DNA of 62,926 nt, counting the filler, from Aduncisulcus paluster (Eukaryota), in NCBI GenBank assembly GCA_024181965.1. It is 6 parts of 6 records of this genome, joined end to end, with 100 filler letters (N's around TTAATTAATTAA, not from the genome) between each part and the next. Parts side by side here need not be neighbours in the genome. Positions count along the whole stretch, not along the records: positions 1 to 12,396 come from BQXS01011031.1; positions 12,497 to 30,586 come from BQXS01011033.1; positions 30,687 to 38,648 come from BQXS01011034.1; positions 38,749 to 50,515 come from BQXS01011035.1; positions 50,616 to 57,170 come from BQXS01011036.1; 1 more part is not named here. One strand, written 5' to 3'. Positions 1,070 to 57,170 of this stretch are shown here, piece by piece; within the stretch, counting starts at the first letter, position 1; every line of letters begins with the position of its first letter. A program made the translations under genes and the position numbers. Under the pieces are notes generated by a model. It was not told where the DNA came from and did not search any database. It saw nothing but the letters and a program-made list of their open reading frames with translations.

Positions 1070-1904
1070 TTAAAAATGAATTTGAGAATGTTCAGGTGTG
1101 TCCATTATTGCTCTCCCAAATTACATTATTATCAATGGAAAGATCTCCATTCTATCTTAGACTCTATTGTTGTGATGCTACCGGCATTACCGCCACCTAC
1201 CGGTGATATTTTATTTTAATAAATTTGCTAGCCGTCTTCCATAAGGAAGTCAATACTATGACATAGAGTTACTCTAAGAGTATGTGAAAAATACACGTAA
1301 TTCATGAAGAGTAGCTGGAATGAGTTTCAACGAAACTTTCGTTTATTTATTTTGTTCATAGAAAAAACAATTTAGAAAAAGATTCAAAGTTTGAATTTCA
1401 AATCATATTGAATCGTATTTGAGGAAAAAAGATAAGTTTCACCATGAAAAAGGGATAGAATAACACCCCAATGATTACAAATTGTAATATGATATAAGTT
1501 ATATCATATATTAAAAAGACTGATCCCTGCCAAGATTGATTACATTCTGCATTGAAAACAAGAAGTTCCACAAGGTAAAATAACTGGTGTTTTGAAAGAG
1601 AATATATACTTGGCAAAGTTGGAAATAATTCATTCCGAAATAAATAAAGGTGAATCATAAAGGAAATCGACTATATTTAGTCAATGAGAAAAGAAAAAAA
1701 AATAAAGAATGGAAATGAGAGTTATGGTCTCAAACGTGAAAAATGACAGGAAAATGAACGTTACGAAGAGAAAGAGAACAAAAAAACAAAAAAAAAAACA
1801 AATATTCTTATACATTTATATAAATGTATTATTATATATTTTATATATTTGCTAATCAAAATTTTAGAGCACATATAAAAATATATCCCGATCTATAAAT
1901 AGAA

Positions 1905-4900
1905 TTAATGGGAATATTCGGATTCTGATGTTGGTGGAGAAAGATCAGACCCATCCATTCTCACATCTTTCATCTCGATCATTTGTTGCCCATCTTGTAG
2001 AATCTCTGTCTTCTCAGCATCTGCATGGTTTTCTTTCTCAGGTCTTCTTGCACTTTCAATCTTATCGCTCTCTCCGTCACTCTCTTCTTCGTGGGTGATA
2101 ACTGCCATCCCCTGGTTCGGTTGGTCGTGGAATAGACGTTCCAGAGTGGTGTTGGAGTGAAGATGTGGTTGTTGAGGGTGAGAGGCAAGTGGATTGTCCT
2201 GTGTGACTTCAACAGTGGTATGGTCATCTATCAAAGACCCACTCACGTATGAGGCATCTGCCTTCACTCCTTCTATGATATCGTCGTCAGCCTCACTCTC
2301 GTTCTGGGAATGGCAAGCCGTGTGGATCACGGTGGAATAGGCTGATCTGACCCTGGCTTCTTCTTTTTCCATCATGACAAGGTTATATTCCATCTTATCC
2401 ATGGGCTTGACCCCCAGAGAATCATGGATGTCATGCTGTTCAATGTGGTGTGATCCGTCAAATGGAATGTCATCAAATGACCCACTGTTCTCCTCTTCCT
2501 CGTCGTCGTCATCGTCTTGAATCATAGGAGCTACAAAGAAGTCTTCAGGATTATAGAGGGCTTGTGGATCCAAGGGAATATCAGAGGATTCCTCACTCTC
2601 GGAGGATTCGTACTCACCACCAACAGAGGAGCCAAGAGGTAAGGTCATTGTTGCACCTTTTCCACTGATGGAAGAGGTTGAGGAGGAGGCCACAGTGGTG
2701 GTGGATGCACTTGTAGTCTTCTCGCCCTTTTTCTGAAGACGGAGCCTCTTCCTTTCTCTCTCTTTCCTCTTCTGCTCCCTTCTCTTCTTGGCTTTACGTT
2801 CCTTGGTATGGGCAAGTCTGAGAGCAGCTTCCATAGCAAAGTGAAGCCCAGCGTTCCCTTCCTTCCTGAACTCATCCACAAGATGGAACAGTCCAGCAGT
2901 GGGGTCAGTCACAAGGGCTCTAAGCTTGAGGAACCGATGCAACTGAGAGGGATCAAGCACATGGGCGATCAAACGCCTGGCTCCAAGTTTCCTCGAGTAC
3001 ATGAGTGCCTTGTAATCGGCCACATCAGAAGACAGCAATGAAACAACGATGTCTGGATGCAGGATAATGGCACTATCTGAAATGACAGTGGCATTGTCTT
3101 CCTCGGGGAACAATGGACCCATATTGGTCAGGGAGAGGGATTCAATATTCACGACAACAAGCTCATCGGGGTGACGGATCTTGAGGCATTTCAACTCACA
3201 GGGAGGACGGACATGATGATGATCACGGGTGTGCGTGTGTGATATTGTGTTGAATGCTGTAATGGTCGATGCGGCTGTTCCCGAGGCCGAGGAACTCACA
3301 GAAGAAGAGGCAGCGTTGGGAGGCAATTGGACAGGTACATAGGGGCATGTTCCCCCTGCCATGGAACGGGCTGTACTGTTGGCAGAGATATCCCGGGAGG
3401 AAAGGAAGCTTGGAAGACCTCTGGGCAATGTGTTGGAAGCATCCTCGTACACTGTGGATACGTTGGAAGTCGGTTGGAAAGTGGACTGAGATCTTTTCAA
3501 CTTGGGGGGCTCAGCAAAAGTGGTAGTGGCTGTCGCAGAACCTCCATTTCCACCCACTTTGGCCTCAGGGAATATTTTCTCAAGTTTAGAAGCATGGGGA
3601 TCATCTTTACGTTCTGAAATGGTCGTATGAACGTCAGGTTCCTTCTCGAACTTGACATGCTCGTGGTGGTCAAACGTAGATTGAGTTGCACTGGATTCAA
3701 TGTCGTGTTCAAGCACTTTGTGGGTGAGCATGGACGGGCCCTGGTGTCTGGACAAAGACGAGGCGTGGGCATGACGAGAGGAAGTAGTAGTACGCTGAGA
3801 ATCGATATTGGGTCCCTTCTCATCCGAATTGACACGACAGAGAGTGACAGTCCACTTGTGATGGAGAAGTCGCTCAATAAAGAAGAGCGTGGTTGGATGC
3901 TTGGGAGATCCGAAGACGAGAACATTCCCATGGGTCTTGGAACTGACTTCTTCGATTCTGTCAGCAAGCAAGGATGCAGAATCAACGGGGATACGACGCA
4001 GGGAGTCGACAAGGTCGGCGGTTCTCTTTTTCTTCTGTTGACGGTCAAGGGGTTTAGGTGTCATGGGTGTCATGGCCCCACTGGTGGACCTTGACACAGC
4101 CTTAGACCCAGCTCTGGTCATGTCGTGCTTCTTTTTCCTCTGCTTTTCAATGTTTTTCAGTGATTCGACAGCTTCTCCACTTAAACTCACAGCTACTTGC
4201 ATAAGCATGGGTCCACAGATCTGATTCATCACCACAACAGCCATTGTAAGGTTGAGGATATCATCTCCCCATTCCTCGAAGGCTGAGCTTGTGTTTCCAG
4301 CCATTGTCAGGGAAGCAGCAGCTTGGGCAAGGAATCCCATCCACCCTGTCATGACATGAGTGGTTGAGAATTCCCTCTTCTTCTTCTTGTCCTCCTCTGA
4401 GGCCTTCGCACGACGGTATGACAGGAATGATGTGGCCCCAATGAAGTTTCCAACCATTCTTGCGAGCAAAATGGCAATGGCGGGGACAATAACTTTGGGA
4501 ACACCGTCAAGCTGAAGCCTGACACCAGTCCATCCAAAGAAAGAAATGAAGGTGAATGTCGTTAGGTGTTTAATTGTGTTAATGTATTCTTGTGAACGGG
4601 AGGAAAAATTACGAATCAAGAAAGAACCAATCAAACAAGCAGGGAGAGCTTGTGGACATATCTTGACTTTCCAGTCTGCTGACCATTCAGTGAGGAAGTA
4701 TGATATGTTGTAAATAACGAGACCAGCAATAAGAATACCAATGCAACGTAGGAGAGCGTCAATGACCTTCAGAGCCTTCGAATGTTTGGCAGCATGGGTA
4801 GCAGAAATACCATCAAAAGCAATACACAAGTAGAGGATGAGGAAATCAAGGGCGGCAAGGGCGAGGGTGGATAGGATAATGACAGCTACTTCAGCGAGGA

Positions 4901-5528
4901 GAAGAGGAGAAATAGACTGACCGTTGAAAATAGAGACTGACAACCCCTGAAGAGCTGCAAACAGGATGATGGATGAAGTATCTCCGAGAACAGTTGAACC
5001 AAGGAGACTCTTACTGTAGGGTCCTTCTGCACCTTTGGACATGGGAACAGCAACGGCAACGGTGGGACTACGTCCAGTCATAATAAAACCAACCAATACA
5101 CCTCCCAAAATCTTGAGACCAAGGGAAGCTTCCTTAAAATAGGGAATAGCGGAACATACAAAAGTGAAAACTATGGTGACACAAATAACCACAAATAAAG
5201 CAGTAAGACCAGTGCAAGCAAGGATTCTCGAAGCAATAGACTTCACTGTCTTCATGGATAACTGCATTCCGCACACTTGTCCAACAATTCCAGTAACGAA
5301 AAAATTGGTCTGCAGACCAAGCATGCTGGAAACATAATCACTCGTAAAAGCATTAAAAATAAAGGGACCAAGGCAAATCCCTGCCAATATATATCCCAAA
5401 ACAAGGGGTATCGAAAGCTTACCCAGAACAGAACTAAAAGCTTTGGAAACTGAGATGAGCAATAAGAAAGCCAAAACAAACAGAAAATAATCTGGGGTTG
5501 ATAGTGAATCAAACGTAGGAATAGACAT
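1905..5528 (-). CDS. Cation/proton antiporter (CPA2/Kef-like) with C-terminal RCK (TrkA-N-like) domain and long low-complexity regions
   Basis: 1207-aa ORF. The N-terminal ~450 aa is multi-pass hydrophobic with IPLVLGYILAGICLGP, RSPTVAVAV, TVLGD, FFGWTGVRLQL and NQICGP motifs. Rossmann-like segments NVLVFG and DIVVSLLSSDVAD..ARRLIAHV..VTDP follow. Confidence 0.85.
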   Translation of the reverse strand: MSIPTFDSLSTPDYFLFVLAFLLLISVSKAFSSVLGKLSIPLVLGYILAGICLGPFIFNAFTSDYVSSMLGLQTNFFVTGIVGQVCGMQLSMKTVKSIASRILACTGLTALFVVICVTIVFTFVCSAIPYFKEASLGLKILGGVLVGFIMTGRSPTVAVAVPMSKGAEGPYSKSLLGSTVLGDTSSIILFAALQGLSVSIFNGQSISPLLLAEVAVIILSTLALAALDFLILYLCIAFDGISATHAAKHSKALKVIDALLRCIGILIAGLVIYNISYFLTEWSADWKVKICPQALPACLIGSFLIRNFSSRSQEYINTIKHLTTFTFISFFGWTGVRLQLDGVPKVIVPAIAILLARMVGNFIGATSFLSYRRAKASEEDKKKKREFSTTHVMTGWMGFLAQAAASLTMAGNTSSAFEEWGDDILNLTMAVVVMNQICGPMLMQVAVSLSGEAVESLKNIEKQRKKKHDMTRAGSKAVSRSTSGAMTPMTPKPLDRQQKKKRTADLVDSLRRIPVDSASLLADRIEEVSSKTHGNVLVFGSPKHPTTLFFIERLLHHKWTVTLCRVNSDEKGPNIDSQRTTTSSRHAHASSLSRHQGPSMLTHKVLEHDIESSATQSTFDHHEHVKFEKEPDVHTTISERKDDPHASKLEKIFPEAKVGGNGGSATATTTFAEPPKLKRSQSTFQPTSNVSTVYEDASNTLPRGLPSFLSSRDISANSTARSMAGGTCPYVPVQLPPNAASSSVSSSASGTAASTITAFNTISHTHTRDHHHVRPPCELKCLKIRHPDELVVVNIESLSLTNMGPLFPEEDNATVISDSAIILHPDIVVSLLSSDVADYKALMYSRKLGARRLIAHVLDPSQLHRFLKLRALVTDPTAGLFHLVDEFRKEGNAGLHFAMEAALRLAHTKERKAKKRREQKRKERERKRLRLQKKGEKTTSASTTTVASSSTSSISGKGATMTLPLGSSVGGEYESSESEESSDIPLDPQALYNPEDFFVAPMIQDDDDDEEEENSGSFDDIPFDGSHHIEQHDIHDSLGVKPMDKMEYNLVMMEKEEARVRSAYSTVIHTACHSQNESEADDDIIEGVKADASYVSGSLIDDHTTVEVTQDNPLASHPQQPHLHSNTTLERLFHDQPNQGMAVITHEEESDGESDKIESARRPEKENHADAEKTEILQDGQQMIEMKDVRMDGSDLSPPTSESEYSH

Positions 5529-5859
5529 TGAAATTATTGTTTATAATGTCTTTGCTTTGTTAACAAAACTACCATCACTGAGAATGAATCGAGAATGAAC
5601 TGAAACAATTTGAAAGCTATAAGAAGCCAATCCAGGAAAGTTTTTTGGATTTAAATTGCTGTTTAATGGGAATATCAATGCACAATAATATTTTATATGA
5701 CTAATCCCAAAGATAGAGATTCAGGAAGATCCAATAAAGTTAGATAAGAATTTATGGATTTTACTTTATTTAATTTGCTTAAATAACTTGTATTTCAGAA
5801 TGAATTGATGAAATAGTTTGTCCTTGGGGAAAATCCATAAGATGGCGATTTTTGTGACA

Positions 5860-7479
5860 ATGGAGCAATACAACTTTAAAATTCCAAAGGAATATCCAAA
5901 AATACTGAAAGAATTTTGTCGTCAAGTTATTAAATTGCAGCCTGATGATATATATTCTTTTGGTGCCAAATATTTTTCTGAACTGTCCCAAAAAATGTTC
6001 GTTAATGTCACAGAGAAGATGCCAAGGAGTGAAATGTCTCTTTTATTAACAGATAGGTGGTCAAAATTGGCCAATTTAGACACAGATCGGGTTCCCCACC
6101 ATCTCATCAAGGAAGACATTTCTAAGCTTCCAATTGAGTTAACAGAGAGTCAAAAATTGTTACTTTATTCGGTTATTGTTGAAAGAAAAGGTTCTATGAT
6201 AGATTATAAAGAATTAATCCATACATTTGTTAGTGAGCTCTACGCAAGGAAAGGAAGCTTGACATACACTCTTCCCCAAGCTGCAAATATCATTCACGGA
6301 ATGTTACCTGGGGAGGTCGTTAAGAAGCTTGCTGGAATTCTTGCCAGTCAACTCATGGCTGAGGAAACTGAAAAACGACTCGCTGAGGAGGAGTTAAAGG
6401 CGAAAGAAGCTGCTGAAGCGGAAGCTCTCGCTGAAAAGAAAGGAAAAAAATCAAGGAAATATCAAAGAAAGATGAAAAAGAAGCAGGAAGAGGAAGAGGA
6501 TGAAAAAGAAAAAATTGTTGCCATCATACATACAGAATCGTCTGTTCTTGCATCAAGATCTCCATTATATCTTTCCAGAGCTCGTTCTTACGCTGGATTG
6601 AAACACCCTTCGCTCGGAATTACTGATGCTGAGGCACAGTGTATCCTTGGATCTATTCATAGTGAAGGCGAGGTTTTGGATATCCGAGTTATATTAAAGA
6701 ATATTTCTCGTATTCTTGGACTTGCTTTTAGCTTGCAACTTGGAATGCCCAGACCCTTGACACAAGAAAATATTGTTATGCGTCTGAACTCTATATTCGA
6801 GGCATACGACCTTCAAAAGACTGGTTCATTACTTCTTCGTGATACATTCAATGCCTTGATGAGCGATGATCTCGGAATGACTCATGATCAGGCCCTTGCT
6901 TGTGTTGGTACCTCCCCTCTCACTGAGGAAGGAAACGTCTTATACCGGCAGTTTATCCCGGCCGTAGCCAGTTTTATCATTCGTCTGCGTGTTCCTGAGC
7001 GTGCTCTTGCTCTTGCAGGGTGCACCGAATGCGATTATCTTGATATCGGGACTGCAGATGGAATCGACGGAGGCATCGAGTCCATGGCCGAAGGTGAGAG
7101 TGTTCTCGCCGTTGGAGAGACCCGTGAAGGTGTAGAAGGGCTTGTTAAAGCTGCTGTTGAGGCACAAAGGGAAGAAGAAGAAGACGACGAGGAAGAGGAG
7201 GAAGAAGAAGAAGATGTGACGGGGAAGGCTGGAAAGATGACTATAGAGAGGGGTGAAGGTGGCGAAAAGCTTATAATTCTACCAATTGCTGCTGCTTTGG
7301 GACTTCTGACATCTGAATTGTGCCCAATGTCCATTGAAGAAGCTGCCGCTGTGTGTGCTTGTGTTCAACGGATGGATGGATCCGTTTGTGTTGATGACGT
7401 TGTTTCAATCACTTATGATATTGTTGTTGCTGTTAAAAAAGAACTCTTCTTGCAGAAGAAAACAGAAGAATTCCTGTAA
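5860..7479 (+). CDS. RIIa dimerisation/docking domain plus EF-hand protein (radial spoke RSP7-like)
   Basis: N-terminal IPKEYPKILKEFCRQVIKLQPDDIYSFGAKYFSEL matches RIIa. Degenerate EF-hands follow (IFEAYDLQKTGSL, GNVLYRQF, DGSVCVDD). Start at ATG 5860, alternative 5842. Confidence 0.75.
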   Translation: MEQYNFKIPKEYPKILKEFCRQVIKLQPDDIYSFGAKYFSELSQKMFVNVTEKMPRSEMSLLLTDRWSKLANLDTDRVPHHLIKEDISKLPIELTESQKLLLYSVIVERKGSMIDYKELIHTFVSELYARKGSLTYTLPQAANIIHGMLPGEVVKKLAGILASQLMAEETEKRLAEEELKAKEAAEAEALAEKKGKKSRKYQRKMKKKQEEEEDEKEKIVAIIHTESSVLASRSPLYLSRARSYAGLKHPSLGITDAEAQCILGSIHSEGEVLDIRVILKNISRILGLAFSLQLGMPRPLTQENIVMRLNSIFEAYDLQKTGSLLLRDTFNALMSDDLGMTHDQALACVGTSPLTEEGNVLYRQFIPAVASFIIRLRVPERALALAGCTECDYLDIGTADGIDGGIESMAEGESVLAVGETREGVEGLVKAAVEAQREEEEDDEEEEEEEEDVTGKAGKMTIERGEGGEKLIILPIAAALGLLTSELCPMSIEEAAAVCACVQRMDGSVCVDDVVSITYDIVVAVKKELFLQKKTEEFL

Positions 7480-7691
7480 TTCTAAATTATTTTTTTATAC
7501 TTTCTCTATTTCAGTTATTTGAAATAATCCTAGTAAAATATTAGCCTTTTTTCATATATTATTAGGAATTAAATATATTTTGATCAGATATTTCAATTTG
7601 ATTGTAAGGAATTTCGAGATATTGGAATCGAAAGTTTAATCAGTCTTTTCCTTGGATCTGGTATTTTTTTGGGAATGGAAAAACTAAGAAG

Positions 7692-10658
7692 ATGGGAGTG
7701 TGTCATATTACATCATATGTATTGAATTCAACACATCTTCTTCATAAAACATCTCTCCATAAGCTTAGAAAGAAGACTTCTCATGTCATCATTGATTTCC
7801 CTGCCATATTGTATCATTTTTCCAGTCTCCTCCCAAAAAATAGATTTTATGATTATCTTTTATTAATTAATTACATTGACATTTTCATAACGTCTTTTCT
7901 GCAGTTGAAGTTCACTGTCCATATCATTGCTGATGGTTGTGTGCCTTCTGCCAAACTTCGGAATCCAAAGGTTATTATTCCTCGAAGACAACGTAATTTA
8001 GTCGGTAATATTAGTCTTGGAGTGGATATATGTTCCAGTTCATCCGTAGATAATGGTTTTTCTGTTTGTTACTCCTTTTTCCCTGTCGTTTGGGATTATC
8101 TCAGGAGAATGGCATCGATGAAACAATTTGATCATATGATTGATCTCGTTATTGCAGTTAATGGTGAAGCTGATTCGTCTATTATTACTTATGCTTCATT
8201 TTATCGAGGAGTGGTTATCGGGAAAGACTCCGATTTCATGGTTTCTCCATTTGTTAGTTGTTATTTTCCATTACAAGGTTGTGATTTCTCACAGTTGCTC
8301 TCTCCATTGATTGCTGAGAAAAATGCCGTAACCAAGCCAGATCGGTATTCAATTATTTCTTTTGATTCAAATCCAATTGCTGCGACATCTTGCTTACCCA
8401 AAATTGAACCGTATCATGTAAATATTCAGCATGCTCCAATTTCTGTAATGTTTCCTCATGAACTGGCTTCATCTCTCTCCTTAACCCAACTACAGCTCCC
8501 ATTCCTCGCTTTTCTTCTGGGAGATGATCGGATTGACTCCGATATTGCATCTAATAATAGAAAAAAATTAATATCTTACCTTCGTTATGAATCAGGACCG
8601 TCCGGTATGAGTAAGCGAAAGAAAAAGAAGAACAAAGGAAGCAAAAAGCAAGCCAAGAAATCCAAGTCCGCGAAAAAAAACTTCTTTTCTTTCCTTCCCC
8701 ATTCAGTTTTATCTTCAAGCAAGCGTGATAATACCGTTAATCAGGCAGCCAGACTACTATTTCAGCTTGGGTATTCTTGTTCTGAAAGCCAGAAACACAA
8801 GCAAAGTGCCGTTTTGATTGGAAAAGTCCTTGGATACAGCAAGGCAGAAATGGATAGGGTTCTTGATGGACATAAGGGAGATATTTGGGGTGGATCACCA
8901 AAACCAGAGTCAATATCGATGTCTTCATCCTTGTTTCGTGATTATTCTAAAATTGAACACCTGAGAAAGAGTGAAGATGAGGATCAAAAGGAAGATATTC
9001 TTGATCCTTCTGCTCTAGCAAAAGATATTCAGGATATGAGTGTCTCTGAGTCTTTTGTTCCATCTTCCTCTTCCTCCCATAGCGATACTTCTCTTTGTGT
9101 CGATAGAATATGTAAATTGGATGAAGGAAAGACTGAAAAGAAGCACGAGAAAGAGGGAGAAGTATTGTCTGATGGTGGTGATACAATTTCTTCTTCTTCT
9201 CTTTCTTCTTCTTCTCTTTCTTCTCCACAATCAATGATCAAGGAAGATTCCAAGGATATATTACCAATGTATCATGTGAAGTCTGATCCAGATGACATTT
9301 CTTCATCTTCTTTCTCCCTCGTATCTGAAGCTCCATATATTCTTGTCAACAAGGCTCTTTCTCAGGAATTATCTGTTCCCACTTCCTTTGCTCGGTCATT
9401 CATTGACACACATGGTCAATATTATTCAAAAAGGATATTAAATTTTATTTGTATGATGTTTTGTGATATTTTCTTTAATCCTCAAGCAAAGAGTGACATT
9501 AAAGACGGAAGAGATGACGAATCTTTCGACAGAATCCCTTGTCATTGTTTATCTGATAATATTCTTGGTTCTATTTTTAGAATATGTTCTTCTCATTCTC
9601 CTGAGAAACAATCCTCATCATCAGCAACTGTCTCCCATTCTTCATCTCTCATCTCAATTATTAAACTTGGAGTGATAATTCAGCCACATTTGTGGGAGCT
9701 TGGAGTTGAATGGAACAGTTTTCTTGCGTCTGTGTCTGAAGAGAGTTGTCAAGGAAGTGTGGATAAGCGTGATCGTTCAATGGCAATGTTGTCGTTCGGT
9801 CAATGTTGGTCCCATACTTGTTTTGCGTGGCATTGTGCAGAACAATGGATTAGGATTGTATCACAGGATTGTCTCATGGGTGAAATGAGTTCGAGAATTT
9901 GCTCAAAAGGCTGGTGGAAAACCAAATTACCTCATGAAATCATGGTTTCATCGATAGAATCATCTCCAATAAGTCCATTATGCTGTCCAATTGATGAATC
10001 ATTGTATTCTTTTAATTCTGAATCCATATTCGAACTCAATTTATGCATTTGTGAATGTTTGTTCACATTCATGCAAAAGAATCGGGAATTGTCGAGCCCA
10101 ACAATCAGTTCCGATGATTCTATTTTCTCAACAATTTGGAGAGGGAAAAGCGTATCTGTAAAAGAATTTCAAAATCGCTGGACTCATTCATTTTCGTTCC
10201 CATACAGTTGGTTTGGGTGTTTATTTTATGTTCTATTGAGGCCATGTTTCAAAAATCTAGCCAAATCAAAGTCAAAAGAATTATCATATCCATCTCGATC
10301 TGGTGCCACTCCAACAAGGCAAGAACTTCACTTCATTTCAAGTTCTGTGCACTTAATTGGTGCTCTTTTCGACCTGAATGTTGCCTGTGGTGCCCCTTTC
10401 CTTCATTTTATTGAACTATTGTTGATGAACTTTCGTGGATGGGAAGTTGTTCAACATATTCATTCTAAAATGTTTGCTTGGATGGATGTGTGTTCATGGG
10501 ATGAAGAGATTCATTCAGTAGGATCAACCGAATTCATTGATAGAGGAGATAAAGATGTCCATTCCACCGAAGCTGTTTCTCTCACGGAGAGTATTCATAA
10601 GTTTATGCAAGGGGTTATTGTGTCTAATATTGAGTCACGTTCTTCGCCCATTGTTTGA
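7692..10658 (+). CDS. Asteroid/FAM120-like XPG-type PIN-domain protein
   Basis: MGV start; VIIDF, IIADG, GEAD, GKDSDF and LAFLLGDD motifs of the FEN1/XPG/asteroid fold; 988 aa. Confidence 0.75.
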   Translation: MGVCHITSYVLNSTHLLHKTSLHKLRKKTSHVIIDFPAILYHFSSLLPKNRFYDYLLLINYIDIFITSFLQLKFTVHIIADGCVPSAKLRNPKVIIPRRQRNLVGNISLGVDICSSSSVDNGFSVCYSFFPVVWDYLRRMASMKQFDHMIDLVIAVNGEADSSIITYASFYRGVVIGKDSDFMVSPFVSCYFPLQGCDFSQLLSPLIAEKNAVTKPDRYSIISFDSNPIAATSCLPKIEPYHVNIQHAPISVMFPHELASSLSLTQLQLPFLAFLLGDDRIDSDIASNNRKKLISYLRYESGPSGMSKRKKKKNKGSKKQAKKSKSAKKNFFSFLPHSVLSSSKRDNTVNQAARLLFQLGYSCSESQKHKQSAVLIGKVLGYSKAEMDRVLDGHKGDIWGGSPKPESISMSSSLFRDYSKIEHLRKSEDEDQKEDILDPSALAKDIQDMSVSESFVPSSSSSHSDTSLCVDRICKLDEGKTEKKHEKEGEVLSDGGDTISSSSLSSSSLSSPQSMIKEDSKDILPMYHVKSDPDDISSSSFSLVSEAPYILVNKALSQELSVPTSFARSFIDTHGQYYSKRILNFICMMFCDIFFNPQAKSDIKDGRDDESFDRIPCHCLSDNILGSIFRICSSHSPEKQSSSSATVSHSSSLISIIKLGVIIQPHLWELGVEWNSFLASVSEESCQGSVDKRDRSMAMLSFGQCWSHTCFAWHCAEQWIRIVSQDCLMGEMSSRICSKGWWKTKLPHEIMVSSIESSPISPLCCPIDESLYSFNSESIFELNLCICECLFTFMQKNRELSSPTISSDDSIFSTIWRGKSVSVKEFQNRWTHSFSFPYSWFGCLFYVLLRPCFKNLAKSKSKELSYPSRSGATPTRQELHFISSSVHLIGALFDLNVACGAPFLHFIELLLMNFRGWEVVQHIHSKMFAWMDVCSWDEEIHSVGSTEFIDRGDKDVHSTEAVSLTESIHKFMQGVIVSNIESRSSPIV

Positions 10659-11214
10659 AATATAGTGTTTTATTATATTCAATGTGTTTGTATTCGTTGT
10701 GTTTGGTATTTTAACAATCCCAATCATAGATCTAACAGGACGATCTTTTTTCCAAATTTACTTATATCTGAGATTATCAAGTCTAGTCTTGTATGAATCA
10801 TAAGAAATGCTGGATCAATGCCCAATTTTAAGAGAGATCCCAGCTAAAAACGACATAACAGGAATTCCAACAAACTTTATTACAAAGTTGACAAACAAAA
10901 ATATCCAAAAAAAAATATCCAAAAAAAAATATAAAAGACATTATTCTGCCATGGATCCATGATGGATCTAATACAGATTCTGTATTACAGAATGACACAC
11001 AACGGTCAAGTGCCTGAACAATTAAATACAATAAAATACAAGTAGAGTGAGAATATATATAAAAGGGAGATAATAATTCCACACATTGACTCATTAAGAA
11101 TCCACGGACGGATTTACACACTTCAAGCCAAAGTTCAAACAATCATTGTTACAATGAATATCAACACAGAATACAACACAATACCATACCAATATCAATG
11201 TGTTAATCGTTCAA

Positions 11215-12396
11215 TTAATGATAAAAAGAGTTCCCAGCATCCCCTTGGATTGGCTGATAAGCTGACGATTGAGGAATCAAAGGATCATTGGCCGCAAGAG
11301 AAGATCCAAAGGATGGAACGGTATCTGTTGGCACATATCCAGCTCTCCTCGCACGCCTCTTAGCTTTGCAAGCGAATATAATAGAGAAATTATCCAATAA
11401 CCATAGAAAACAGAAGATTCCACCAAAAACGAAGAGAGTGGTTCCATCGTTTCCAAAGCTTCCATCAAAGTCGAGGAGATAGTGGGAACAAGGATCATCC
11501 CAGGAAGTTACATGGAGTTCAAGTTGATCGGCAGGCAAGTATTGGAAAGATCCACAGTAATCACTTTCTGGATCTTGAATGAAATAACTATTTCCGCCCA
11601 CAACAGTACTCTTGCCAACAAGATTTTCAAACGAAGGAGCTTCCCTGAAAATAGGCTGGTGGTAAGATGTCGGGAAGGAAAAATCGGTAAAGGAAGGGTT
11701 GGGCTTGATAACAAGGTCGATGTATGGAGGCATTGGCCATTGATAGCATGTATAATCACCGGTGAGACCTCCATGATTACAGGAAATTTCGGAACTAGGA
11801 TCACACGTATCTTTTTTTTGGTTGGATTTCTCATATTTGGATAAACTTCGATGGCATATTTATACGAATAAATATCTTGAGAACGCGTATTCGTGAATTT
11901 GAGATCGAAATCGGCCGATAATTTCGGAGGATTGCTCACATAAGGACTGGATGTTGTGAAAACAGTTGTTAGATACTTGTGAGGAACGTCATAATAGTCA
12001 ATATGCTTTAGAGCTTCCACGTCTTTGGATCTGAGCGAAGATTTACAGGAACCAGTAGCGACAGTAAAATCATCATATTGAACTTCATAATTACCCGCAG
12101 TAGCTGAAGTATCGTCAGTTAAAACAGCGGACAAATAGGTCGCCGATTCTTTGAGATCAGAATCGCTAACTTGTTGAGAATTATCAATTATGTCTGCAAA
12201 CTGATAAACGTTGCTCCAATACTCGTCGTTATGAGAAAAGCCACTGGCTTTGTATGGCATACACAAGACAAAGAGTTGCACAAGTTGCAGTTACAAGCCA
12301 CACAATAATAATCGTGATAAAAGAGCAGCAAATACGACGCTTTGTTTTTGACGCAGATATTTGAGCTGCTGGTGCATTTTGGACGGTACTTGGACT
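11215..12396 (-). CDS. Hypothetical two-TM membrane protein, 5' partial, with two apparent frameshifts
   Basis: The frame open from the contig end encodes a TM (FITIIIVWLVTATCATLCLVYAI) and shifts near 12235 into ORF 11508..12281. It shifts again at the 8-nt homopolymer ~11812-11819 into the frame KDTCDPSSEISCNHGG..MPPYID.., which has a C-terminal TM and stops at 11215. Confidence 0.6.
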
Positions 12397-12496: not shown

Positions 12497-13253
12497 CCTT
12501 CTTAAATGATAATAATGATGATATTATTGGCGATAAAATATCAATATATGTTTCAAATATCGACTTTAAAATTATATTTTATATTCTTTGTGGGTCTAAG
12601 TAGCGATTTGAGGAATCCAATCGTAGATCAAAAGAATACAATTAATATAATGGTCATAAAATTATTTACATTTGATATAAAAAACTTATCCTCATTCTTA
12701 TTGGGAAAAAACAATCTAATTCCATCCAATATAGACATTCTGAATTTGTGTTGAACTGAAAATAATTGAAATTGAATTGAAAAAGTTATTCAAATTTAAC
12801 AACGATTGGAAGTTGTATAAAATAATTATATTAATGTTTCCAATACCACCTGCAAAAGAGCCTTTTTGAATTTCAAAGTTTGACTCATTAATCAGCACTC
12901 CAATCCTCACATGAATGTCATCAAATTCATATATTTCTCACCAATAGACAAATCTCTTTTCTCCAGATGTGTTGTCGTTTGACACCCTATTCCAAACGTC
13001 GGGAAAAAAAAATTGTGTTATTCGAAGCCTTCAAATTAACTCGAAATCCAGATATATATGATTGTAGAAATTAGTAGTTCCAAACCTCTCTTTAATATTC
13101 ATCATCGTGTCAATTTTTTTGATCAATGATCATAATGTCAAGCCTTGACACTATTTTTTGATAATTTGAGGCCACAATCGTTCGTCTCCATCCATCATTT
13201 TCCAATCGTGTCATTTTTTATTGTCGATCCAGGACAGGTTTGTTCCAATTAAC

Positions 13254-13406: not shown

Positions 13407-13441
13407 GCAAGCTAATAAATTTGATCACTCATCCCTTCCAC

Positions 13442-16457: not shown

Positions 16458-16839
16458 AAATGCCCAAAAATATATATTATGTTTCATTCATCCACTTTAT
16501 TTGGATGAATGACGAACTTCGTTCTTGAAGAAGTGGTATTCTTTCGAGAAATGATTCAAAGTTTTGTATCTCCTCTCTAGACAATCTAATTTAATAAAAT
16601 AATAAATTAAATTCAATAAAATAATAAATTAAATGGTCAAAATGGATGACATTCATCATGAATGATATGATCATACAAAATTTCAGAACAAACCACATTT
16701 TCCTTTTGTTTATAACAAATTGTATGTTTATTATATGTCATATCTTTTATTAGATGTATATTAAGAAATATTTTAACCGGATTCATTCATTATTCTGCTC
16801 GTATTTATTTTTTAGGTAAGAAATTCTATCTCTATTCAA

Positions 16840-18236
16840 ATGAGTTCATCCACAGATGCTGTTATTCAAACTGTGGAACCTAAGTTTGTTCTTGAAGGAA
16901 ATTACTCTTGCTGTCCAATTCCTGGAGATGCCCCCAATATTAAGAGTGCAGAGTTTCCAACTATCAAAGCAATATGGGGGGAAAGTTATAGGTACGATCA
17001 GAGTTTTGAAGCACAAGAGATGGTGAAAGGAGAGTGTAATACTGGACAATATACGCATATCTCCATTCCTTTCTCTTCATCTTCCCCAATGAAAGGGGCT
17101 TATATCTGTCTAATTGGTGCGTCTTCTTCATATGGGACGACATCTCCATCACATCTTATCTTCACTCTCACATCTTCAAAGGGTGATAAAACATCCAAGA
17201 AATACGAGTTTCCTGAATTTAAAGGTCGTCATTGGTACTTCCTTCCTGTTGATCTCCCTGATGTTGTTCTGTGTGAGATTACAGGGAAAGGAAGAGAGAA
17301 AGAGTATTTTGATATCCAATCCCTCGTTTTCATTAGTAGAGAAGAAACTCCTGAAGAAATCACATCTCGTGAAGCCAGAGAGAAACTATGGTCTGAAGCC
17401 CCAGTTGTGAAGGCAGAGTTTGTTAAGGAAGGATGGAGAGATTCTATTCCCATTCCACGAGATGATCCAAAGCTTGTAGATCCTTCATTCTCAATGGTTA
17501 AGTGCAAGGATGATTCGGTGAGTAAGGAATCTGAGTATTATGATCAGAGTTCAGATGCGCAAAAAATGTTAAAAGGGGAAGATAGTGTTGAATTATCCCA
17601 TCTTTCCATTCCTTTCCCATCACCTAGTNNNNNNNNNNNNNNNNNNNNGAAACTCCTGAAGAAATCACATCTCGTGAAGCCAGAGAGAAACTATGGTCTG
17701 GAGCCCCAGTTGTGAAGGCAGAGTTTGTTAAGGAAGGATGGAGAGATTCTATTCCCATTCCACGAGATGATCCAAAGCTTGTAGATCCTTCATTCTCAAT
17801 GGTTAAGTGCAAGGATGATTCGGTGAGTAAGGAATCTGAGTATTATGATCAGAGTTCAGATGCGCAAAAAATGTTAAAAGGGGAAGATAGTGTTGAATTA
17901 TCCCATCTTTCCATTCCTTTCCCATCACCTAGTTCTATGAAAGGTGCTTATATCTGTGTGGATGATTTTAATAGTTCACCCTCTCTTCTCTTCATTTTCA
18001 CTGATTGTGATGGTAAGAAGACATCCAAGAAGTATGAATTCACAGAACCTGAACATAAATATGAATGGCACTTCCTTCCTATTGATTTGGATAATGTTGT
18101 ATTGTGTGAGATTGAAGGGAAAGGAAGGTGGAAAGAGAAGAATAGTCGGTATATCAACATCATTTCCCTTGTTTTTACTACCTTTCCAGAAGAAACCATT
18201 GCAGCCGAACGATTATCTTTACTTCCATGGAAATAG
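16840..18236 (+). CDS. Two-repeat hypothetical protein of a lineage-specific family (~363 aa after removing the duplicated overlap)
   Basis: Two homologous domains, each with PIP..P, HxSIPF..S.MKGAYIC, KTSKKYEF, W.FLP.DL..VVLCEI.GKG and SLVF. 17344-17628 is repeated as 17649-17933 across N20. Resembles a family recalled from Aduncisulcus. Confidence 0.8.
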
Positions 18237-18419
18237 TTATTCCAAAGAGAGTGCGATTGGAAAAAGAAGGATAGTTTCAGAATGAAGTACAATCATTGTA
18301 ACAGATGATCTGTTGCCATCAGACTGATGGAGACGTTCAAACAACAACAAATCGGTCGAGTCCTCTTAATTTATATCATCTGATCCAAGGGTCTTCGAAT
18401 ACAATGGGTTTTTCAGGTT

Positions 18420-18587
18420 GAGAATCTCAACATAGGACAAATCGAGGCAGCGCATCGTGTCGTCCACACCGAAACAGTACTTCCCGCTGTCTGTGGCAAT
18501 CTCTTCAAAGAAGGACGCAATCAACTTCTTCTCTTGCGTGGACTTCACATCCTTGAGAACATCCTCACTCAGCTGGATGGCCTGGTT
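18420..18587 (-). pseudogene. eRF1: Isolated fragment of eukaryotic release factor 1 (M/C domain junction)
   Basis: [56 protein letters not shown] aligns by eye to eRF1 NQAIELS..L.NVKFIQEKKLI..YFDEISQDTGKYCFGVEDT..ALE.GAVEIL. No NIKS or GGQ region. Confidence 0.85.
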
Positions 18588-18975
18588 GACTATACATGAG
18601 CCCTTCACATTACATTGACTATCCGGACCTATGAAATGGTGGACGGCATTCTCTTGCAACTTTACGGACATAATTATGACGACCTTCCTCTCTCAAACGA
18701 GCGAATATACCATATACTATATGGCATATAGTACACCGTACTATGTTCAGTTCGGATGCATTTAAAAGAGAAAGGGAGATAGTAAAAAGACAGAAATAAA
18801 AAAAGAGAAGAAAGGCATTGACGAGCTTGTAAAATATTGGTTTTATTCTTTTAAAAAGAATCTTTTTATTAAAAAGTTTTTATAAGGTAACACCACCAGA
18901 GATTCCGGATGATTCCAGATTCATTGGAGTCTCATATCCACACCTTCATTGAATTCCAAACAGACATGACCGAGG

Positions 18976-20406: not shown

Positions 20407-20970
20407 CCGTAACAAGCAATAATTATTTATATTAGTGTAATAAATCCTTGTTAAAACGAAATAATTTATATATTTTTCCAATTATTATTCTTTATAGTAT
20501 CTGTAGGCACAGAAAAGCGCCAATAAAAAAAAATAGATCAAAGACTCCGAGTCCATCATAACAAGATGATAGATAATCATATAACAAATGGTTGGAAATA
20601 GAAGGCGCATATATATACATATATAGGAACTCCATCTTGCGAGTGATGAGAAATGGTGTGGTTTTTAACTTCCCGGTTAACTTGGATTCTGAGGTTTCTG
20701 GATTTTATTTTTGTGTGCTTTTTTGCTTATATTATATTTTATTTCATTTTTAACCGGTCTTGTCGCTTTTGAATAAACTATAACACCTTACATTGATTGA
20801 ATTCTGTTTTTGTCACATATCTCTGCACATTATTGCATGGTATGGATTTAGATGTTTAGAAAGATGATGAAACATATTATTTTGTGCGCAAAAGTTGTGG
20901 CCCTAGACTCTCTAAACCAGTTGCACCTTCTGTCAAACTCCGAGTTTCAAACTATCTACAAGTTGTAGAT

Positions 20971-21021
20971 AGTACAGTAGTACAGTATAGTATAGTACAG
21001 TACAGTATAGTACAGTATAGT
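20971..21021. repeat. (AGTAY)n pentanucleotide tract
   Basis: Alternating AGTAC/AGTAT units. Confidence 0.85.
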
Positions 21022-21490: not shown

Positions 21491-21609
21491 TAGATATAAA
21501 TAGATATAAATAGATATAAATAGATCGGATTGATAACCAATATAGATTGTTTGAATAGATATTGTGTTTGCAATGAACATCATCAATATATATATATATA
21601 TATATATAT
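21491..21609. repeat. TAGATATAAA x3 and (AT)n microsatellite
   Basis: Direct reading: 21491-21520 and ~21587-21609. Confidence 0.85.
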
Positions 21610-21882
21610 CAGCATCAAAATATCAGCATCAAAATTTCCAATGAATATAGGATTAGATTAGTTGAACGCATCTGATCTAATCTGTTCTGATCCATGAGCT
21701 CCATGATTTGTATGATAATGCAATATTCATAAATTAATATTTATATGAATATTAATGCATCACTGAAGAGAATAATAATAATTATAGAATATTATATACT
21801 TGTATATAATATCTAATAACATAATTTTTAGACTTTAGAATTTAATAATGAATAAAATATATTATATATTATATATTATATA

Positions 21883-27543: not shown

Positions 27544-27813
27544 TAGAATCGGCCAAATCAACTGGTTTGGATCTATCTCTGGTAAACTAAATTAGAGATG
27601 TAAAAGGTGCAATAAAATGTGGATCCAAATACATCCAATTTTGATTAAAATATATTTAATCCTTGTTTATTGTGATCCAACCGACTTACAGCCAATCATG
27701 TTTATCATCTTGAATAATATTGATATCGAGATATAATTCACGTTGATAAATTGAAAACACGTGCTCATTTGAATATTCATTATAAATCAATATATTATAA
27801 TTAGTTAGCCCGA

Positions 27814-35286: not shown

Positions 35287-36554
35287 TTATTTGTGTTCAA
35301 CTTCAGAAGCAGGTAAAGGAAGAACATTGATGTTGAGGGGGAAATGGGCCTTATGGGCGTTTCTTTTATGGTGATACTCAACAAGTTTGGCCTTTCTTAA
35401 GAACTCAGCGCGTGCTTCTTCACTCAATTCACCAATTCTCTCCTCAAATCCTGTGATACGGCTTCCTTTCATCATATAACCTGTATAAAGTTCGACAAAG
35501 TCATAGGACACTCCTAATTCATCCTCATCTGACTGTCCTTCCCACAAATCGGCACTGGGTTTGGCTTCAATAATGGAATCAGGAACAGTACCTTCGAGGG
35601 CACGAGCAACGGCAAATACTTCGCTCTTGTGAAGATCTGCGATGAGTTGAATGTCGGCGACACCATCTCCGGCCTTACAGAAATACCTTAAATATCCATC
35701 TTCATCGAAATTACCAGTTCCGACGCAAACACAAGGGAATCCTTGGGCAGAANNNNNNNNNNNNNNNNNNNNATACGGCTTCCTTTCATCATATAACCTG
35801 TATAAAGTTCGACAAAGTCATAGGACACTCCTAATTCATCCTCATCTGACTGTCCTTCCCACAAATCGGCACTGGGTTTGGCTTCAATAATGGAATCAGG
35901 AACAGTACCTTCGAGGGCACGAGCAACGGCAAATACTTCGCTCTTGTGAAGATCTGCGATGAGTTGAATGTCGGCGACACCATCTCCGGCCTTACAGAAA
36001 TACCTTAAATATCCATCTTCATCGAAATTACCAGTTCCGACGCAAACACAAGGGAATCCTTGGGCAGAAATCATCTGAGCAACAAAATACAAAACGGGAG
36101 TACGCATGTATGATCTGAGTTGACCACGGGCAAAACGGACTTTGTCAGGCTTAGGGAGAAGGTCACCCTTGAGCTCACCGATGACAATGGAGGATAAACG
36201 ATCTTCGAGGGAGGATTGATCAACCGTTATGATTTCAACACCAGCAGCTTTACCAGCAACGTAAGCACGATCCTGGATAGTGGCGGTAGAGTGAATAGGT
36301 TGAGCAATACCCAATACTTTTTTGAGAGGGGAGCCTGGAACCATAGAGGCCTTCTTAAGAAGAGCAAGGGTAACAGCACTATCAATACCACCTGAGACAT
36401 TGATACAAGCTCCAGACAATCCGTGAAGTGCAAAGTATTCATTGGTAGCCTCAACTTTTTTGTCGATCCATTCTTTCGCATTAAAAGAACGTTCTTTGCG
36501 GTATTCCATAAGCATATCTTTCAATTCTGGGTGTAAACCAAGCTTCATTACCAT
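35287..36554 (-). CDS. nadE: Single-domain (NH3-dependent type) NAD+ synthetase, ~316 aa after removing the duplicated overlap
   Basis: VSGGIDSAV, VGTGNFDE, IADLHKSEV, KPSADLWEGQSDEDELG; no N-terminal glutaminase domain. 35456-35752 is repeated as 35773-36069 across N20. Confidence 0.92.
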
Positions 36555-36860
36555 ATTATATTCTCGGATGTTGCAAAAAGGTGTTTCGAAAGTTTCCGAT
36601 GAGGATCCAAGGAAAGTTTCAAATCAGGGGAGTAAAATTGCAATAAAACGAAACACAATAAATAGGAAATGATTTATTTTCTTGACAGATTCTGAAGATC
36701 ATCATCGAAAATCGAGTCGATTTAATCGACCTGCGTAAAAGAATTTATCACAAACATACTATTATAAATTGGATTGGTGTTTTAAAAAATTATTATTATT
36801 ATTATTGATTAATTTGTTGAATCACTGAAAAAAAAAAAAAAAAACAGAGAAAAACAGGGA

Positions 36861-38647: not shown

Positions 38648-38648
38648 A

Positions 38649-38748: not shown

Positions 38749-38779
38749 CTCAAATCTATATAATCAATCATTATCACAA

Positions 38780-40506: not shown

Positions 40507-40981
40507 CACAAGGTCTAGGTTGAAAATACTCAAATAGTCCGTTCTTTTTGACATTCTACCTTTGTTTTTACTTATTTCTGTTCTAATTGCTATTTTATTT
40601 CTAAGACTTATCCACATATCCTAATGTTTTCGTTGAATAGAGTTCTCAGAACTATAGGCTACTAGCCATATATATATATCTGAAAGCCAGGCTTGATTCG
40701 CTCGAAATGCTGTCTGAATACTTGCTTATATTATTATTATCATATTTTCATCTACATTCTTATATTAATACATAAATGAGAGAAAAAAGGCGCCGTCTTC
40801 AAGACCGAATAAATAAATACTCGATATATCATTGTTCCATTCATATCATCATAATATTAGTCCAGCAAAGTATGTTATTTTGATTTTATTTTGCTCGTAT
40901 TGCCCGTGGTTTATGTTTTACCAAAATCCGAACAAAAAACAACCAGTTTGCTTCTGAACACACAAATTATCTTGATAGAAC

Positions 40982-41782: not shown

Positions 41783-42118
41783 TGATATATAAATTTATTT
41801 TCGGTTTTGTTATTCATCAACTCCATGATAATCACATCAATCCATTAGTTCCACTTTATCGAGTTTTTAAATTATTTTTCGCGTTAAAATAAGAAGTGTT
41901 TTCTACAATTATTATTTGTTTATTGATTCACTATATTTTTATTTGTTATCTCCCTGCGTTCTATTTTTAGATTTCATTTTTACTTCATTAGTGTTTAATA
42001 GCATTATTTGACCCATTTCTCGTTGATAACTAGAAATATCCAAATATAATATTATTTTCTGGACTTACTCGCTTTAATATAGGGATAATTTCAACTTAAC
42101 TATCAAAAAAAGAAACAT

Positions 42119-43621
42119 ATGATTTCACGGAAAGAGAAACTAATTCTGCTGGCAGCCACTGCTTTTACCTTTTTAAGTGCCTTTTTTTATTCAGCTGAAG
42201 GAGAAATTATGGACGGTGAGGTTCTTGAATCCTTTCCACGTCCATTTTTAATCAGTTACGTTACCCACGGATTATGTGCTCTATGCATCTTTATGGAGCC
42301 TATTAGGTGGTCTGTTCAAACTATTTCATACAAATCAAAGTCAAAAAAGCTTCAAAATATGTCAGATCTTGAAGATCTTTCTGCTTCGAAAACATCATCA
42401 ATTTCCTCATCTGCGATTGACGAGAAAATTGGAGAAACCCTACCCTTAATTGAACAAGATAGAGATGATTCGTCGAGTGAAACCATCACCGAATGGGATG
42501 GTGAAGCTGAGACAAGCGATAAGGATAAAAAGGATCCTCCTCATGAGACCAGACTTTTGCCCGACTCTCCGAAGGATGAAAACGCCCTTCAAAAGCCAAA
42601 ACCAATGCTTTTCACAACTAATGGCAGCTTTACCAATGGTAAAACCATTGGCAAATTTATATTTTTGACTTATTTATATATTATCGGTTGTTGGGTTTGG
42701 GTCATTGGTTTGGCTTATGTTGCCTCCTCTGTTGTCACAGCCATTGCGAATATTGGTGCTGTTCTGGTCTTGATCTGGAATAGAATAGTTCCTTCCAAAC
42801 CTAACCCTGGGAAACGTGAGATTCGTGGGTCCATAATTATGATTTTTGCTGCTGTTATTTTCATTTTCACTCTTCCTCAGCCTGACGAAGCCCACCATTC
42901 AATTGGAGATGTTGTATTAGGGGTGTTTCTGGGTATTCTTTCCCTCGTCTTAATTACTGCTTTCAGACTCTTCTACGAGCTTTGGTGGCCCGATTTGACT
43001 GTGTACGAGCAAATGCACTGGCTTGGTGAATACGGTGTGTACACTCTTGTTTTCTGTCTGCCCATCATTCCTCTGTTGAGTGTGACTGGGGTTGAAAAGT
43101 GGACAGCCCCCACATTACAGGAATGGCTCGTCTTATGCAGTACTGGAGTGTCTGAATTCCTCATGAACCTAACAATGTTCCTGGCATTCACTCTCTCATC
43201 TCCACTCTTTTTCTGTGCTGGTAATGGTGTTACTGTTACAATCTCATTGATTCTTGACTTGTCTATGCACAGATTTACTATTTCATGGTGGCGTGCCCTC
43301 ATTGCTTTCATTTGCACAGCTGGTATTCTCGTTGGAACCATCGATATCGGCTTTGGAGAAAAAGAACGTGAGACTCAGAGGAAACAAGAAGAAGAAGGAG
43401 AGAGTGATTCCATCATCGATGAAACTATCCACACAGACTTTACTGACGGAGCTAACCCTACTACAAGGGATTCATGCACCGATAAGTACCCGAGGAACTC
43501 TTCCTTGGCTCGTTTCTCCCAACTTGAAGGTATTGCTGGATCTAACATCTCTCTGAGTAATCTCAGTGGAGCCCAGTTGATTGGTAATGATGACGTGGTC
43601 GAAGAGGAAGAGGGGAAATGA
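42119..43621 (+). CDS. DMT/EamA superfamily transporter (SLC35F-like)
   Basis: About 10 hydrophobic segments, FPRPFLISYV motif, large hydrophilic loop after TM2. Confidence 0.75.
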   Translation: MISRKEKLILLAATAFTFLSAFFYSAEGEIMDGEVLESFPRPFLISYVTHGLCALCIFMEPIRWSVQTISYKSKSKKLQNMSDLEDLSASKTSSISSSAIDEKIGETLPLIEQDRDDSSSETITEWDGEAETSDKDKKDPPHETRLLPDSPKDENALQKPKPMLFTTNGSFTNGKTIGKFIFLTYLYIIGCWVWVIGLAYVASSVVTAIANIGAVLVLIWNRIVPSKPNPGKREIRGSIIMIFAAVIFIFTLPQPDEAHHSIGDVVLGVFLGILSLVLITAFRLFYELWWPDLTVYEQMHWLGEYGVYTLVFCLPIIPLLSVTGVEKWTAPTLQEWLVLCSTGVSEFLMNLTMFLAFTLSSPLFFCAGNGVTVTISLILDLSMHRFTISWWRALIAFICTAGILVGTIDIGFGEKERETQRKQEEEGESDSIIDETIHTDFTDGANPTTRDSCTDKYPRNSSLARFSQLEGIAGSNISLSNLSGAQLIGNDDVVEEEEGK

Positions 43622-56615: not shown

Positions 56616-56670
56616 ATTAGTTAGCTCGAACAATTGTATATCAATTTGAATAAAATTGTGTAAGGCCTAA

Positions 56671-56845
56671 CCAAGCCTTATTCACAGGAACATTAAGCCT
56701 GCCACCAAATTGGCAATTTCCTTGTCATCTTCATCCCAATTCTATGAAATGCACCATTGTTCTCTCTGATCTCGGTCTTGCTGAAATCCAAGGCCACATG
56801 TATACTGATAACAAAAGATAAACTGCTGTCACTCCGTATGAACAA
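56671..56845 (+). pseudogene. Protein-kinase gene relic (subdomains VIb-VII)
   Basis: PSLIHRNIKP / NFLV / PNSMKCTIVLSDLGLAEIQ across two frameshifts, then a stop. Confidence 0.75.
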
Positions 56846-57170
56846 TTAGAAGTAAAATAAATGTTTTCAAATGGATAAAACTTAATTGGAGATTATCATT
56901 ATTGTTTTAAATTGAACATATACCGTTTCTAGTCGAGTAGAGATCCGGGATCTTGCCAAGATAGGCTTAATCAATACTTGGTTTCATTGCTTCCTATTCA
57001 CTCTTGACTCCTTTCTAAAATGACTTAGCTTATTTTGATGGCTCTAGAGAGTAGCATCTTGATGCCTTGTCTTGCTAAATCTTCTCAATATATGTTTGCT
57101 GTTGCCTTTTTCAGAAATTTCTATTGATTACCGTACACCTATTCCTCCCTACTCCTCGGTTCTTTAGTTA

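Follow-up and report, generated by a model that had tools for sequence, protein, structure and literature searches.

Palindromes with a single central base in the non-coding DNA of Aduncisulcus paluster as likely excision footprints of hairpin-forming DNA transposons

Introduction

Excision footprints of cut-and-paste transposons have mostly been investigated at one engineered site at a time, and such footprints are too heterogeneous to be recognised in genomes. The known hAT families duplicate 5-8 bp of target on insertion, and on excision the first nick falls one base outside the element, as in Hermes. The footprints of Ac/Ds are palindromes that have at their centre the base complementary to the one bordering the element, mostly with microhomology at the joint (PMC5873905), and flank hairpins are formed also by RAG and Transib (PMC6900584, PMC5499845). 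We analyse here a stretch of 62,926 nucleotides (the window) of the eukaryote Aduncisulcus paluster, made of six contigs joined by spacers and taken from a genome assembly (GCA_024181965.1) of 29.55 Mb in 23,235 contigs, the intergenic regions of which carry numerous perfect inverted repeats separated by exactly one base. A preliminary description of these palindromes saw in them either a break-repair or mutational signature of the lineage or a structure-based signal, and named hAT footprints and the opening of DNA hairpins as background. The fixed geometry of the palindromes and the empty sister sites reported below support the first of these two readings, and this in a specific form, transposon excision footprints. 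The comparisons of sequence reveal three stereotyped insertions, each made from local target sequence, and it is very likely that the palindromes are the accumulated excision footprints of cut-and-paste DNA transposons which seal the flanking DNA as hairpins.

Abundance, spacer specificity and location

All 12 palindromes singled out in the preliminary description are present where it placed them, on five of the six contigs, and the excess which it guessed at is real: with arms of at least 7 nt and a spacer of one base the window holds 31 palindromes, against 7.4 ± 2.7 in 100 local dinucleotide shuffles with microsatellites unmasked (shuffle maximum 15), and with arms of at least 6 nt it holds 63 against 26 (maximum 41). 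Since spacers of 0, 2 and 4 are likewise raised (13, 10 and 11 at arms of at least 8 nt, against about 2 in these shuffles), the window by itself cannot demonstrate spacer specificity. All statistics rest on the window together with an independent sample, 80 other stretches taken only from the longer contigs and totalling 528,497 of 29.55 million bases, and it is in this sample, not in the window alone, that spacer 1 stands out: compared with 12 shuffles with simple repeats masked, the excess at arms of at least 7 nt is +81 for spacer 1 and between -9 and +16 for spacers 0 and 2-12. The spacer-1 excess is highest at arm 7 (101 against 43.2).

The density of spacer-1 palindromes is 124 per 100 kb outside long open reading frames (ORFs) and 6 inside, the other spacers reaching 24-55 outside, so that the excess of long spacer-1 palindromes amounts to about 0.9 per kb of non-coding DNA (124 against ~33 per 100 kb). 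With genes approximated by ORFs of more than 200 aa, the density per 100 kb is 250 between convergent ORFs, 94 between tandem and 53 between divergent ones, with 13-36 for control spacers (Fisher p 2e-6), and it is flat from 0 to more than 400 nt behind the stop codon. This convergent bias fits insertion tolerance away from promoters, or an insertion preference, better than a positioned signal.

Class I footprints on 8-bp and 7-bp targets

The palindromes had been called unrelated in sequence, which is wrong for overlapping chain members, these being built from three copies of one 5- or 6-mer. The chains can be written as X c rc(X) c X, where rc(X) is the reverse complement of X, and the length of X is narrowly confined: the 80-stretch sample contains 24 chains with an X of 6 nt (0.3 in shuffles) and 15 with an X of 5 nt (1.9), one with 7 nt and none with 8 or 9 nt. 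Arms cross the other centre in 39 of 48 cases, and just 9 of these 39 run one base beyond it. Because the arms reach across the other centre and then mostly stop, the base complementary to the first centre is the one that follows the last X, and that complementary to the second centre is the one preceding the first X. A target abcdefgh is thereby turned into abcdefg h' g'..b' a' bcdefgh, which exceeds the empty site by 14 nt (class I-8), and the same construction on a 7-bp target adds 12 nt (class I-7).

Scored by cost, that is, by the number of changes from the full model, and compared with 6 shuffles, the 8-bp model yields 16 perfect fits (0.0 in shuffles) and 15 with one change (0.3), the 7-bp model 3 perfect fits (0.2) and 20 with one change (5.7), while targets of 4-6 and 9-11 bp show no excess at cost 0-2. 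Among products of +8 to +20, it is +14 alone that is in excess (16 against 0.0; for +8, 17 against 17.5). The 16 perfect I-8 footprints in 528 kb correspond to about 30 per Mb. In all four empty-site comparisons of the double form the complement-centre rule is obeyed. There is, in our judgement, little room for doubt that both classes I are hAT-type flank-hairpin excision footprints, the ends of which were probably joined through the duplication as microhomology; elements of the Mutator-like (MULE) type may have contributed to class I-8.

An apparent asymmetry in the inferred targets faded in a larger set. Plain tandem duplications also exceed shuffles but include minisatellites and codon repeats, and were set aside. 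At L049:4612-4948, behind a kinase gene, six class I fits overlap or adjoin within 340 bases, a hot spot of repeated visits.

Class II scars around a 2-bp duplication

A further class follows the rule flank-C-mirror, mirror-G-flank around a 2-bp duplication. Among the 91 pairs of spacer-1 palindromes lying 8-24 bases apart, 20 have a C as the left and a G as the right centre (0.7 expected), and 13 of these 20 (arms of at least 5 nt) repeat the two bases before the C directly after the G (0.1 expected), one repeating three. The reverse order, G..C, is found in 5 pairs, 2 of them with a 2-bp duplication (0.2 expected), and spacer-0 pairs remain at shuffle level, with no signal of the C..G type. 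In all six class II scars of the window, and in 15 of the 17 cases from the sample, the inner arms either abut flush or share 1-3 bases. The duplicated dinucleotide is TA in 2 of 22 cases, which rules out a TA-only reading, and a 4-bp target CxyG was rejected on flanks that misfit and on an empty site with neither C nor G.

Class II does not follow the hAT rule for the centre, the C standing left and the G right whatever the target and both being absent from the empty site. Nor, having a spacer of one base, does it match the flush hairpin without a central base of the CACTA, RAG and Transib type. What the scars do suggest is C..G ends combined with a 2-5 bp duplication, as in footprints of the CMCT clade considered below. 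Since the empty site has neither base, we attribute the central C and G to the ends of an element, from which they probably derive; and since the reinserted strand must retain the element's 3' base, the simplest reading would be a C..G-ended element with the other strand nicked one base inside. That class II consists of transposon excision scars we consider likely, and we lean, by a narrow balance, towards a hairpin made by the transposase itself after a nick within the element.

Empty sister sites and the state of the assembly

The evidence of sister copies comprises every case that could be read among 561 palindromes queried, in one targeted search and in one contig comparison. Alignment of paralogues, which the preliminary description had put forward as a check, presents the scars as insertions in local sequence, and sister copies lacking the scar confirm each of the three rules: +14 was seen twice, +12 twice, the class II insertion of +15 once cleanly and one of +17/+18 once at lower identity. 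Thus window 18410-18431 exceeds sister copy L101 by exactly 14 nt, the latter holding the predicted target TTCTCAAC, and a hAT gene copy (L001) exceeds its sister L092 by 14 nt at a perfect footprint of CTTCTATA and, elsewhere, by 7 nt at a single palindrome, the centre of which obeys the complement rule. Likewise, a 12-nt insertion behind window 10713, present in one contig of each sequencing run, is a perfect footprint of AACAATC, and another sister contig is without 12 nt of the footprint at 10869-10887. For class II, window 257-280 exceeds sister L011 by exactly 15 nt, L011 having a single TA and neither the C nor the G, and the 3-bp case is backed by sisters at 65-75% identity. Two further gap matches, at 69-72% identity, are uninterpretable. 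A presence/absence scan among the sampled loci yielded no clean element insertion.

Contigs assembled separately from DNA run X1, probably the source sample of the assembly, match window 1227-9181 and 10959-11231 without differences. Blocks of 200-300 bases are doubled across 20-N gaps at window 14627, 17629, 20031 and 35753 and in L090, L093 and L111, which looks like a scaffolding artefact mimicking tandem duplication. In three sampled stretches (L016, L049, L032), sequences several hundred bases long are duplicated in inverted orientation close to contig ends; the copies are 1.5-6 kb apart and enclose ordinary host genes.

Transposons in the genome

The hAT dimerisation domain (PF05699) is matched eight times above the cut-off, three of the matches being confirmed and having open frames of 596, 632 and 885 aa with what are, by eye, presumably the D, D, CxxH, RW and E motifs, and there is one MULE transposase with an 809-aa frame. 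Both complete copies of an element with 21-bp terminal repeats are bounded by exact 8-bp duplications, GTATTCTC and AACAGGAG; they are non-autonomous, have a perfect repeat, are 99% alike in their shared parts and contain hAT fragments, while a third end is without partner. These copies (L093:1988-3299 and L008:1281-1804), with G-rich subterminal repeats, represent a young non-autonomous hAT family. A small element (L004:1220-1781, L115:1501-2275), which is bordered by CATACTTTGAAATC terminal repeats and contains a fragment of the hAT dimerisation domain, has no 8-bp duplication, its flanks being GG on both sides at one locus and unlike each other at the second. For the long elements of the hAT, MULE and Plavaka-like types the ends were looked for and not found, and structural searches for elements with C..G ends and duplications of 2-5 bp returned mostly chance matches and one family, ambiguous in having a 2-bp duplication or none. 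The Plavaka-like frame has AGTACTAA-type repeats upstream and sits between pieces of non-LTR retroelements.

A proposed mechanism

In the scheme that we propose, an element would insert and duplicate 8, 7 or 2 (rarely 3) bp. On its excision the first nick and the final cut would lie one base out of register, leaving in each flank hairpin one unpaired tip base, which would become the centre of the palindrome. In classes I this tip would be the complement of the last duplicated base, as the hAT rule has it; in class II a C would stand at the left tip and a G at the right one, both foreign to the target, their simplest source being the element's terminal base, which in turn would place the first nick within the element by one base. 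The host would then open each hairpin several bases from the tip. Where the duplication is of 7 or 8 bp, both opened ends would expose the same reversed duplication and anneal throughout, giving one product, +12 or +14; since a 2-bp duplication offers no such overlap, the arms of class II would be joined flush or over 1-3 bases. The scars may be expected to persist where they are tolerated, chiefly between convergent genes and in pseudogenes, and repeated visits would generate the chains.

Metamonads are reported to be without Ku70/80, DNA-PKcs and Ku-dependent end joining, and alternative end joining is reported in Carpediemonas (PMC8516963). An absence of Ku would favour long arms and joining across the full duplication. 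Our profile searches for Ku (PF02735) and DRMBL/Artemis (PF07522) gave no match, although, being made on exon-split sequence and without a eukaryotic positive control, they cannot show absence. On the broadest formulation opinion is evenly poised: class II would be a third cutting register, with the nick one base inside the element (one base outside in hAT, flush in RAG and Transib), C..G ends and a non-TA 2-bp duplication, so that, with the fixed +14 and +12 products added, a eukaryote devoid of Ku would carry in its non-coding DNA a log of three transposon chemistries and of the opening and joining of hairpins without classical end joining.

Alternative explanations

The most serious alternative concerns class II only and shares its cut register: the element would be cut out without a hairpin, its terminal base left as a 3' overhang in the manner of mariner, and a host ligase would close a hairpin that is later opened and joined. 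The sequence is silent on who closes the hairpin, this account likewise accommodates a C and a G that the empty site does not contain, and metamonads, reported to have no Ku (PMC8516963), would lack its protection of such ends. Ligase-closed blunt breaks might, however, also be expected to yield spacer-0 pairs, which are not in excess, and duplications that are so rarely TA are unlike those of Tc1/mariner; we hold such closure by the host to be possible but doubtful. Far less probable is an origin independent of transposons, in break repair or replication template switching (snap-back synthesis-dependent microhomology-mediated end joining, SD-MMEJ, or fold-back) that writes inverted copies. 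The scars are indeed insertions templated on local sequence, SD-MMEJ does yield inverted repeats, and very tight snap-backs have been proposed (PMC2943611), but from such a process one would expect neither a fixed period nor arms that end at 7, neither a complement rule nor a fixed C..G order. It also requires primer repeats, of which by eye there are none in the clean empty sites, and the period equals the duplication length of elements in this genome; for classes I it is largely refuted. What survives of the break-repair alternative raised in the preliminary description is thus its specific form, excision footprints.

Its other alternative, a structural signal under selection that would serve 3'-end formation, termination or cruciform extrusion, is not supported, there being no fixed distance to the stop codon, and we rate it as slightly more improbable still than template switching. 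In its favour one may cite the high density between convergent ORFs and the 24 G-T as against 12 A-C mismatches on the sense strand, but the latter excess is not significant compared with control spacers (105 to 96; p 0.15) and the density is flat behind the stop. Moreover, the palindromes are absent from sister copies and present in pseudogenes and in a decayed transposase copy, and a one-base loop is unable to close an RNA hairpin. The hotspots at bacterial terminators have spacers of 4-5 nt (PMC13155455). Some scars could nonetheless have been co-opted as signals. As to an artefact of assembly or library, which the fragmentation of the assembly and the doubled blocks at 20-N gaps might suggest, the exact agreement of separately assembled contigs over the two intervals given above, together with the avoidance of ORFs by the scars and the later point changes which they bear, reduces its probability to practically nothing.

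Several observations nevertheless tell against excision footprints as the general explanation. Of the 31 long palindromes of the window, 21 fall in class I (with at most one change, or with an empty sister) or class II; the 10 without firm assignment, where about 7 are expected by chance, comprise 3 with two-change fits only and 7 single ones (7.4 expected by chance). An informative sister copy was obtained for only a handful of the 561 palindromes, and among the loci compared there was none with the element in one copy and the scar in another. The scars far exceed the elements found, and no intact element with a 7-bp duplication was among the latter. The inferred 8-bp targets are weakly biased (A/T at positions 2 and 7 in 79%), with no clear nTnnnnAn. 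In the case of class II, C..C pairs likewise exceed expectation (8 against 1.0), 4 of them carrying the repeat, for which nested events are a probable but not a full explanation. As for its element, a profile search for Transposase_21 (PF02992) was without match, though no positive control gave a signal in it; the Plavaka/EnSpm-like transposase frame L111:2064-3452 lies below the Pfam cut-off, its ends not being found; and of the two loci of the one candidate that has CA..TG ends, a single one shows a 2-bp duplication.

Scars and neighbouring genes in the window

The positions of the scars in the window are collected in Table 1, matches in the AT microsatellite at 21586-21885 being excluded from the class counts.

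Table 1. Single-base-centred palindromes of the window and their assignment
Position	Feature	Basis or remark
257-280	class II; C 263, G 275, TA duplicated	sister L011 without 15 nt
1264-1282	class I-7, target TAGAGTA	perfect fit
1324-1342	class I-7, one change; contains the 1329 palindrome	cost 1
1382-1403	class I-8, one change	cost 1
1474-1509	two abutting spacer-1 palindromes, no class	cost-2 fits only
10713-10719	empty 7-bp target AACAATC	sister contig has perfect +12 footprint
10869-10887	class I-7, one change, target AACAAAG	cost 1; sister contig without 12 nt at 10870
10954-10968	lone spacer-1 palindrome, no class	
10971-10992	class I-8, target ATACAGAA	perfect fit
11138-11156	class I-7, target AACAATG	perfect fit
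12237-12263	class II; C 12244, G 12257, CA duplicated	pair geometry
13136-13150	lone spacer-1 palindrome, centre C, no class	
16512-16532	class II; C 16517, G 16527, AA duplicated	pair geometry
16645-16663	class I-7, one change; contains the 16650 palindrome	cost 1
18288-18314	class II over class I-8; C 18294, G 18307, AT duplicated	sister L102 with single AT, alignment less clean
18309-18330	class I-8, one change	cost 1
18410-18431	class I-8, two changes, in decayed gene piece, target TTCTCAAC	sister L101 without 14 nt
18710-18731	class I-8, target CCATATAG	perfect fit
18846-18883	two overlapping class I-8, low complexity	18846-18867 perfect, 18862-18883 one change
20943-20973	class II; C 20948, G 20962, TT duplicated	further C-centred palindrome at 20935-20947
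29530-29617	cluster	29572-29590 class I-7, one change; palindromes at 29530 and 29601 no class
29705-29734	class II; C 29714, G 29729, AA duplicated	pair geometry
36709-36730	class I-8, target AAATCGAC	perfect fit
40641-40653	lone spacer-1 palindrome, arm 6, no class	
42630-42648	class I-7 fit, one change, inside ORF 42089-43621	cost 1
56941-56962	overlapping palindrome pair, G and C centres 9 apart, no class	

At 18288-18330 the right arm of the class II scar copies a base change of the adjoining class I footprint, so that the class I event came first, then the change and then the class II event. The ORF which contains 42630-42648 encodes a 510-aa membrane protein in which TNG is repeated at this place, and +12 would preserve the frame; the fit is possibly an in-frame scar fixed in a gene, or else chance. 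Window 16816-18236, with a scar-rich 3' flank, is a member of a very large species-specific domain family with many paralogues. Scar clusters also lie before or after the genes at 27805-29526 and 35287-36623, which from their motifs we take to be those for Elp3 (radical SAM and acetyltransferase) and NAD synthetase.

Significance and comparison with known systems

The scars are stereotyped enough to be counted, dated by decay and assigned to a duplication length with nothing but the sequence in hand, and past transposon traffic thereby becomes measurable after the loss of the elements. They contribute appreciably to the new sequence between the genes of a compact genome and bear witness to the repair of breaks capped by hairpins, in a lineage reported to be without Ku. 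Class II yields a precise biochemical prediction for the transposase responsible.

The closest counterpart of classes I is Ac/Ds, as described in plants, Saccharomyces and Candida (PMC5873905), with which they share the complement centre, the microhomology at the joint, the 8-bp duplication and the possibility of long arms, which there reach 20 nt in S. cerevisiae but do not exceed 3 nt in Candida. Unlike the mixed products obtained there from one engineered site, one product (+14) dominates here and +8 is not in excess; and the scars here are fixed, at some 30 perfect copies per Mb. The duplications of 7 bp in hAT7 families (PMC12730594), and likewise in Kyakuja, fit class I-7 in length, with the difference that here this length is read from the scars alone. 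Muta1, a MULE, shares the flank hairpin and a duplication of 8-9 bp but differs in that its excision is more than 90% precise in yeast and its hairpin is reported to measure 43+43 nt (PMC5499845), and there is no 9-bp class here.

For class II, the CA..TG ends and 2-5 bp duplications of the CMCT clade (EnSpm/CACTA, Mirage, Chapaev, Transib, Plavaka, ESTA; PMC12730594) provide a fit. RAG, however, cuts at the boundary (PMC6900584), whereas class II retains a central C and G. Similarly, among the 14 empty sites of Arabidopsis Pack-CACTA1a listed in PMC6379663 (Suppl. Data 4, table ST6; duplication AAG), the 4 with 2-nt inverted additions are by eye all flush and without a central base, one clone of the 14 having an unexplained CG, and of two carnation footprints (PMC3859356) one is flush and one ambiguous. 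A literature search returned no genome-wide account of such scars and no nick one base inside an element, a weak negative given its thin coverage of subscription papers (classic En/Spm, Tam and yeast Ac/Ds footprints). Overall, the palindromes are best read as the result of a known kind of cause, flank-hairpin transposon excision; what is new with respect to the systems compared is the dominance of one long product for each duplication length, the density of fixed scars and, in class II, a centre apparently derived from the element.

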